From: Patescibacteria group bacterium | Lineage (GTDB): Bacteria > Patescibacteriota > Patescibacteriia > UM-FILTER-42-10 | Direction of reading: 5' to 3' | DNA: 62,879 nt | Assembly (NCBI GenBank): GCA_041666845.1 | Contig: JBAYGC010000008.1 | Span: 1 to 62,879 of the forward strand | Shown here: positions 47,945 through 48,240 of the stretch, in pieces | How the letters are laid out: each line of letters starts with the position of its first letter | Position numbering within the stretch: the stretch's first letter is position 1 | The notes under the pieces: generated by a model | What the model saw: the letters and a program-made list of their open reading frames with translations, nothing else | Told to the model about the DNA's origin: nothing | Database searches by the model: none | Translations under genes and position numbers: made by a program

Positions 47945-48015
47945 AGCCCACGACTAGATTTGAACTAGTAACCTTCACACTCCTGGTGTGATGCTCTACG
48001 TCGAGCTACGTGGGT
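47945..48015 (-). tRNA. tRNA-like gene A with an aberrant anticodon arm, no encoded CCA and an A1-C72 mismatch
   Basis: Minus strand: ACCCACG TA GCTC GACGTA GAGC A TCACA CCAGGAG TGTGA AGGTT ACTAG TTCAAAT CTAGT CGTGGGC T. Position 33 is C, or alternatively the arm folds as a 6-bp stem with a 5-nt loop CAGGA. The D loop lacks GG. Confidence 0.5.
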
Positions 48016-48021
48016 GTTTTT

Positions 48022-48058
48022 TGGTGCCAGCGAAGTAGTTTTGTTGAGCTACGCGCCA
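48022..48058 (-). other. tRNA remnant: the 5' acceptor/D-arm piece fused to a 3' acceptor plus CCA
   Basis: The minus strand reads GGCGCGTAGCTCAAC-AAAACTAC-TTCGCTGGCACCA. It has no anticodon or T arm. Confidence 0.35.
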
Positions 48059-48076
48059 ACCGTACAATGTGCAAAA

Positions 48077-48154
48077 TGGTGCCCCGTCGAGGATTCGAAC
48101 CTCGAACCTACTGATTAAGAGTCAGTCGCTCTCTGCCAGTTGAGCTAACGGGGC
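48077..48154 (-). tRNA. tRNA-Lys (CTT), CCA encoded
   Basis: Minus strand: GCCCCGT TA GCTC AACTGGCAG AGAGC G ACTGA CTCTTAA TCAGT AGGTT CGAGG TTCGAAT CCTCG ACGGGGC A CCA. Confidence 0.92.
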
Positions 48155-48167
48155 ACCCAGAAACTTT

Positions 48168-48240
48168 GGGGTGTGTCGGGACTCGAACCCGATACCTTTC
48201 CGCAAAGCGGAACGCTCTACTCCAACTGAGCTACACACCC
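48168..48240 (-). tRNA. tRNA-like gene C with a collapsed anticodon loop and no encoded CCA
   Basis: Minus strand: GGGTGTG TA GCTC AGTTGGAGTA GAGC G TTCCGC-TTT-GCGGAA AGGTA TCGGG TTCGAGT CCCGA CACACCC C. The anticodon arm folds as a 6-bp stem with a 3-nt loop, or a 5-bp stem with a 5-nt loop CTTTG. Confidence 0.5.

Follow-up and report, generated by a model that had tools for sequence, protein, structure and literature searches.

Certain tRNA-like RNAs are substrates of ribonuclease P (RNase P) or RNase Z and thereby define the ends of non-coding RNAs (ncRNAs), namely mascRNA at the MALAT1 3' end, menRNA, the t-elements of plant mitochondria and mitochondrial tRNA punctuation. Here we analyse two transfer RNA (tRNA)-shaped elements, A and C, in a 62,879-nucleotide (nt) stretch of DNA (the window; positions 1 to 62,879 of contig JBAYGC010000008.1, assembly GCA_041666845.1) from an ultra-small groundwater bacterium of Candidatus Kerfeldbacteria, within the Candidate Phyla Radiation (CPR). 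Like mascRNA and the t-elements, A and C combine a non-decoding tRNA fold, set beside structured ncRNA, with a conserved acceptor/T-arm half. Unlike those eukaryotic and organellar cases, they occur in a CPR bacterium as part of an array of 3–7 units, and their cleavage is predicted from the locus. They also differ from mascRNA, which is given CCA after cleavage, in that no CCA-adding enzyme is detectable here. The Rfam mascRNA-menRNA model gave a weak match of 16 bits, to an ordinary tRNA-Lys only.

A bacterial comparison is offered by tRNAOther of Bacillus cereus, a pseudo-tRNA outside translation encoded by a single gene flanking a genomic island; it has a readable Trp anticodon and is weakly aminoacylated in vitro (PMC3399842). 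A and C are likewise bacterial tRNA-like genes retained outside translation, but their loops are unusable, they lack CCA and they belong to an ncRNA operon. Tandem units behind one promoter, some of them broken, also recall tRNA operons containing decayed pseudogenes, and one such broken remnant lies between A and C. Unlike working tRNAs or decayed pseudogenes, however, A and C are conserved far above neutral expectation and show compensatory stem changes while missing the essentials of a tRNA. Our literature searches found no paper describing such units in CPR bacteria.

We conclude that A and C no longer function as tRNAs and are tRNA-shaped modules under selection. The two elements are:

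48168..48240, minus strand: element C, tRNA-shaped, with a 5-nt anticodon loop, discriminator C and no encoded CCA.
47945..48015, minus strand: element A, tRNA-shaped, with the anticodon loop CCAGGAG (C32, C33), an A1.C72 mismatch, discriminator U and no CCA; the final unit of the array.

ARAGORN reports 'Pro(agg)' at 47944-48015 and 'Lys(ttt)' at 48168-48240. It reaches a 7-nt loop in element C only through a shifted stem that puts a cytosine at position 33, bearing out the first-pass annotation of this DNA, which had expected that outcome from any forced 7-nt loop. Scored with the Rfam tRNA model, C (55.1 bits) and A (48.6 bits) are the two lowest in the genome among complete tRNAs with a short variable arm. 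Aligned to the model, C shows a deletion in the anticodon loop, its stem UUCCG/CGGAA enclosing the loop CUUUG, and A has a 5-bp anticodon stem around CCAGGAG with cytosines at both 32 and 33. Minimum-energy folding returned a cloverleaf for each and reproduced the collapsed anticodon loops that had drawn attention to these two tRNA-like genes, with 6 bp and 3 nt in C (z = -3.5) and 6 bp and 5 nt in A (z = -3.7). By Rfam score and minimum-energy fold, both elements thus have the four-stem cloverleaf of an elongator tRNA. What both lack is its 7-nt anticodon loop with U33 and an encoded 3' CCA.

In the elbow region of C, the D loop carries GG and the T loop, UUCGAGU, is normal, but position 15 faces 48 as G15.A48. 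Element A in this genome has G14 and lacks G18G19; its ortholog in relative G003 possesses both A14 and the GG. The T loops, the D arm, the A1-C72 mismatch and the GG-less D loop of A that were read from the letters in the first pass are all present. Scanning A and C against all of Rfam at E up to 10 yielded the tRNA family (RF00005) as sole match, with no match to Y RNA (YrlA) or to the tRNA-like domain of transfer-messenger RNA (tmRNA).

Judged from sequence, decoding is ruled out for both elements, by the 5-nt loop in C and by C33 in A. Very probably neither can be charged, because neither encodes CCA and no gene for a CCA-adding enzyme is detectable. A search for the head domain of that enzyme (PF01743) came back empty in 6 of 6 genomes from the order, which are drafts searched with this single Pfam family; the same search was positive in 10 of 10 control bacterial genomes. 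ARAGORN identified 48 tRNA genes in this genome (G000; 1.28 Mb in 36 contigs, 41.6% G+C, 98.6% complete), and CCA is encoded in 45 of them, which upholds the earlier remark that A and C stand apart in lacking it; the third exception is a tRNA-Ala truncated at a contig end. Canonical genes for Lys-UUU, a second Lys-CUU beside Arg-UCG, and Pro-CGG, Pro-GGG and Pro-UGG lie elsewhere in the genome. A and C are therefore extras to a complete canonical set.

Sequencing or assembly error at A and C is excluded by identical contigs from two groundwater runs of different studies, which reproduce 47910-48203 and 48174-48316 with zero differences; one of them possibly comes from the sample that yielded this genome. 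The same runs contain co-occurring strains in which 48105-48262, covering C and part of the neighbouring tRNA-Lys, is swapped for 155 other letters.

We compared the window with related loci, eight in all, from six genomes of the order (two genera) and two metagenome variants. At four-fold degenerate sites of the flanking genes pth and mfd, identity is 0.52–0.62 against G001 and 0.34–0.46 against G003 and G002, near saturation. Element C nevertheless retains 96% identity in G001, and A retains 90% in G001 and 89% in G003; for the tRNA-Lys unit of the array the values are 95% in G001 and 81% in G003. Gene conversion from canonical tRNAs was set aside as the cause of this conservation, the best paralog in the genome being merely 70–74% identical.

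The stems covary as well. Across the C/U1 family alignment (four loci), 84 of 84 stem cells pair in standard fashion and 9 of 21 pairs show double-sided changes, the anticodon stem included. None of 500 shuffles reached this level, and none of the slid-alignment controls came near it. In the A family (four species), 84 of 86 pairs are standard, with two compensatory T-stem changes in G002. Neutral-rate divergence and unpaired stem positions, as a neutral pseudogene would have them, are not the pattern of A and C. The initial suggestion that they are decaying pseudogenes is therefore unfit as stated, given conservation far above neutral sites and covarying stems, though other units of the array have been deleted, fused or remodelled and A carries small lesions.

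Anticodon loops behave differently. Between G000 and G001, most differences in C fall inside the 5-nt loop, with one in the remaining 68 nt. At the position of C, the unit in G003 and in locus L041 has an ordinary 7-nt loop with U33, a result that the first-pass annotation had said would point to recent decay or sequencing error. G001, the closest relative, shares the 5-nt loop, however, so the collapse arose before these two species parted and does not represent a recent error. The anticodon stem-loop of A is near-identical in three species; in G002 a 7-bp stem carrying a 20-nt loop stands in for the whole anticodon arm, and the acceptor, D and T arms are kept. Because the bodies hold and the stems covary while the loops drift, these comparisons indicate that selection holds the fold of A and C, not the anticodon.

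The array also undergoes turnover. No species of the genus has lost the first or the last cloverleaf. The middle units are dispensable, because they are deleted, fused or remodelled between species. The remnant next to A, recorded at first sight as about 37 nt ending in CCA and confirmed at 48057..48022, aligns as a deletion fusion whose two parent units are still separate in G001 and G003. The G001 array holds one chimera, a second remnant and two units with T-loop hairpin insertions of ~35 nt (L002 ~1697-1799 and 1943-2048). G002 and G004 have ~35-nt T-loop hairpin insertions of their own, among them the first unit of L027 (G002) and L029 ~1760-1870, and the inserted sequence differs in each of the three species. 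In G003, the ortholog of the array tRNA-Lys(CUU) (L003 1266-1340) has an 8-nt anticodon loop and still encodes CCA.

Aberrant tRNA look-alikes also occur outside the array in this genome. Those at C13:43563-43623, C16:29746-29813 and ~29950-30030, and C24:14743-14813 adjoin real tRNA-Val, tRNA-Arg and tRNA-Gly genes, and their defects comprise a ~40-nt D-loop hairpin, a substituted T arm, which a partial copy downstream of the real gene matches, and a chimeric acceptor. Genome G005 has a canonical tRNA-Phe besides Phe-like array units, and a 20-nt copy of the tRNA-Phe 3' end lies 125 nt downstream of that gene.

All eight loci share one layout, lying between divergent mfd and convergent pth and running from a consensus promoter through a conserved structured leader and 3–7 tRNA-type units to a U-tract. 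Besides A and C, the features of this locus are:

48763..51912, plus strand: mfd (transcription-repair coupling factor), divergent from the RNA operon; Pfam CarD_TRCF_RID, DEAD, Helicase_C and TRCF.
48676..48703, minus strand: sigma-70-type promoter, TTGACA, a 16-nt spacer with TG, and TAACAT; 10 of 12 matches, extended -10.
48493..48626, minus strand: R1, a structured ncRNA of 135 nt.
48387..48486, minus strand: degenerate second R1-like rod with the loop AUCCUCCUUAA; R1 model 43 bits, E = 3e-9.
48249..48379, minus strand: tRNA-Val-acceptor module of 131 nt, its closing stem formed by tRNA-Val acceptor strands around a non-tRNA multi-hairpin core.
48155..48167, minus strand: spacer AAAGUUUCUGGGU, which can fold back onto the 3' end of C; kept in G001.
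48077..48154, minus strand: tRNA-Lys(CUU), canonical-looking, CCA encoded, 70.3 bits; a second copy exists in the genome.
48022..48057, minus strand: fused remnant of 36 nt ending in CCA, joining the 5' end of one unit to the 3' end of another.
47934..47944, minus strand: U-tract, presumed intrinsic terminator, six U, 2 nt past the acceptor stem of A; shares positions with the stop codon of pth on the opposite strand.
47406..47939, plus strand: pth (peptidyl-tRNA hydrolase), convergent with the RNA operon; PF01195, E = 3.9e-56.

The promoter boxes are present in 8 of 8 loci, and a scan of the unit between promoter and A called no strong internal promoter or terminator. The second R1-like rod is near-invariant within the genus. 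The ends of the 131-nt module, 5' GGGTTCGT and 3' CGGACCCACC, match tRNA-Val at C13:43681-43757 and C16:32129-32205, and its core loops are GCAA, GAAA and UUCG. The module is single-copy in this genome by blastn; in L041 a second copy, truncated where the L041 sequence stops, begins lower in that array. The other copy of tRNA-Lys(CUU) belongs to a syntenic Arg(UCG)-Lys(CUU) pair on contig C16. The remnant folds no better than shuffled sequence (z = -0.8). A U-tract behind the A-type unit is kept in G001, G002, G003 and L038, which with this genome makes four species plus one strain variant. Two further readings of the locus were dropped: A acting antisense as a bidirectional terminator for pth, since the plus-strand T-run is strong in this genome only, and a small plus-strand open reading frame behind a Shine-Dalgarno-like motif in the leader, whose start codon is not conserved in G003.

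R1 folds into a long closing rod and a three-way junction with an invariant 12-nt loop containing ACCCCUCCU, which is anti-Shine-Dalgarno-like. Of the 43 pairs predicted by RNAalifold, 19 show compensatory changes. Searching the class with the leader at the DNA level gave short weak matches only and a covariance model was needed to reach homologs; that model located R1 in 55 of 151 class genomes, usually with a single copy in each. R1 has no match in Rfam (Rfam 15). Known RNAs were considered for the leader. RNase P RNA is ruled out, as it lies elsewhere, on contig C17 (C17:20930-21414). Reading the sequence revealed no conserved tag reading frame, as tmRNA would need. Rfam models for the signal recognition particle (SRP) RNA and 6S RNA found no matches in this genome, the small-SRP model found none in five genomes of the class either (four of them closed), and the leader fold reads as dissimilar to SRP helix 8. 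At several R1 loci the downstream sequence reads like convergent pth.

One further family outside the order, represented by G098, also has an array behind R1; its three units carry CCA, and one of the three has a 6-nt loop. A motif resembling the spacer AAAGUUUCUGGGU follows its last array unit. In this locus (L061, ~1820-2070), a CCA-ending array tRNA has the amber-suppressor-like anticodon CUA; the unit with the 6-nt loop is a different one.

We favour structural punctuation as the role of A and C, at a probability of roughly 45%: both may act as RNase P-type cleavage signals, with A additionally serving as terminator and 3' cap. The promoter at 48703..48676 would drive a single ~770-nt non-coding precursor, ordered as R1, the second R1-like rod, the tRNA-Val-acceptor module, C, tRNA-Lys(CUU), the remnant, A and the U-tract. 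The acceptor/T-arm half of each unit would offer a defined cut site for RNase P and a 3' nuclease, and these cuts would release R1, the ncRNA modules and the embedded tRNA-Lys from the precursor. Together with the adjoining U-tract, the acceptor stem of A would form an intrinsic terminator, and A could remain as a 3' cap resisting exonucleases. Co-transcription, RNase P cleavage and termination at A are steps we infer from this arrangement.

Several observations lead us to favour punctuation: the acceptor/T-arm half is the best-conserved part of the units, RNase P RNA is present in the genome, C follows the ncRNA modules, and A abuts the U-tract. The acceptor/T-arm half is the part of a tRNA that RNase P recognises. 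Punctuation had been listed among the possibilities at first reading, and it fits the locus best, with a promoter, ncRNA upstream, C as the first cloverleaf and A as the last within the predicted ~770-nt non-coding unit, and the U-tract behind; the part of that proposal concerning a shared transcript stands as a prediction. A non-decoding tRNA-like fold beside ncRNA is thus found within one predicted transcript. A 250-amino-acid metallo-beta-lactamase protein (C7:7417-8163, minus strand) is the sole RNase Z-like gene of the genome; its score of 130 bits falls below the cut-off of 293, and profile region 153-197, which we take to be the tRNA-binding arm, is missing.

Other results weigh against punctuation. 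The number of units, 3–7, exceeds what punctuation needs, and the spacers are conserved as well, so that constraint may act beyond single cloverleaves. Most families of the class have R1 without an array, and it then carries a promoter and terminator of its own; the array is therefore unnecessary for making R1 and is an addition to it. The arrays of the second genus close with an ordinary hairpin terminator and not with a tRNA-like unit. A with its U-tract (a 6–7-bp acceptor stem, 2 nt, then six U) received no call in a simple consensus terminator scan, because the enclosed 'loop' is a whole cloverleaf. Finally, the lesions of A, namely A1.C72, G14 and the missing G18G19 here and G7.A66 in the G001 ortholog, suggest that constraint on the L-shape is weak.

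Slow decay of redundant tRNA paralogs is an unlikely alternative, in which A and C would be surviving copies of a duplicated tRNA array on a strong promoter. Many of the loops would then derive from the Lys-CUU loop, and the residual constraint would be to avoid misfolding and to spare the processing of the neighbouring tRNA-Lys. The distinct, lineage-specific lesions of each orthologous unit (loops of 5, 6, 8 and 20 nt, T-loop insertions, chimeras and the remnant) suit this account, as do the 8-nt loop that even the array tRNA-Lys has in G003, the acceptor mismatches of A in two species and the redundancy of all tested array units with canonical genes. Yet A and C remain 89–96% identical where neutral sites are saturated, and compensatory pair changes extend into the anticodon stem. 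A streamlined 1.28-Mb genome would also be expected to purge useless DNA, whereas the first and last units persist across the genus.

Trans-acting mimicry, raised in the first-pass annotation as decoys or mimics for tRNA-binding enzymes, is another reading to which we give little weight: A and C would be released from the precursor as decoys, sponges or regulators, possibly jointly with the anti-Shine-Dalgarno-like loop of R1. Possible partners include a modification enzyme, a tRNA-cleaving toxin, EF-Tu or the ribosome. The conservation of the whole C cloverleaf, with covariation in its anticodon stem and a canonical elbow, is consistent with a mimic, as is the near-identity of the A anticodon stem-loop in three species. 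Aberrant tRNA-like arrays follow R1 in a second family too, and the regulatory, non-translating pseudo-tRNA of Bacillus cereus sets a precedent (PMC3399842). Several facts stand in the way: the locus has no linked partner gene, the loop available to a partner is where C is least conserved, G002 has exchanged the anticodon arm of A, and individual units are dispensable between species. Direct pairing between the AGGAG of A and the CCUCC loops of R1 was rejected, as the two do not covary: the loop of A is altered in G001 and absent in G002, and the R1 loops are invariant. A broader proposal, that the tRNA-shaped arrays and R1 together form a new composite translation-related RNA system of Kerfeldbacteria and at least one other CPR family, with the units as trans-acting mimics (for instance decoys directed at the ribosome or at enzymes) and not as processing signals alone, is similarly doubtful.

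Least probable, and in our view very unlikely, is that A and C arose as by-products of small, structured elements inserting at Patescibacteria tRNA genes, which would generate partial, chimeric and insert-bearing copies of tRNAs, with the array as a sink: the 131-nt module enclosed by both tRNA-Val acceptor strands, the independent T-loop hairpin insertions in G001, G002 and G004, the insert-bearing or partial copies flanking canonical tRNAs at C13, C16 and C24 and the tRNA-Phe 3'-end copy in G005 all speak for such elements, but A and C form full cloverleaves that neither hold an insert nor adjoin a duplicate, the module is single-copy in this genome, and A and C sit at the same site in each species with divergence along the species tree, which argues for vertical descent under constraint and not fresh insertion.

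The wider tRNA complement of this genome has further peculiarities. Directly after CCA, the motif CGGGTCAT follows tRNA-Thr (two genes on contig C3), tRNA-Pro (C11) and tRNA-Met (C14), and a one-base variant, CGAGTCAT, follows tRNA-Pro on C22; three of these five tails share a C-rich hairpin. ARAGORN calls a tRNA-Ile with anticodon UAU at C22:16883-16959, which has the top Rfam tRNA score in the genome; this anticodon is uncommon in bacteria. Neither ARAGORN nor Rfam detects tmRNA in the genome, and smpB (C15:40466-40897) sits ~140 nt from a contig end, so the tmRNA gene was probably lost at an assembly break.

In aggregate, these results describe a natural case in which selection appears to have kept a tRNA fold after the loss of both of its translation functions. 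They also carry a caution for annotation, since an ARAGORN 'tRNA-Pro(AGG)' or a second 'tRNA-Lys(UUU)' in a CPR genome can be a non-tRNA. They further link the units to R1, an ncRNA that is widespread in this CPR class and uncatalogued. A and C would thus be a clean test case for the uses of a bare tRNA shape in bacteria, be it RNase P punctuation, termination, protection or mimicry.

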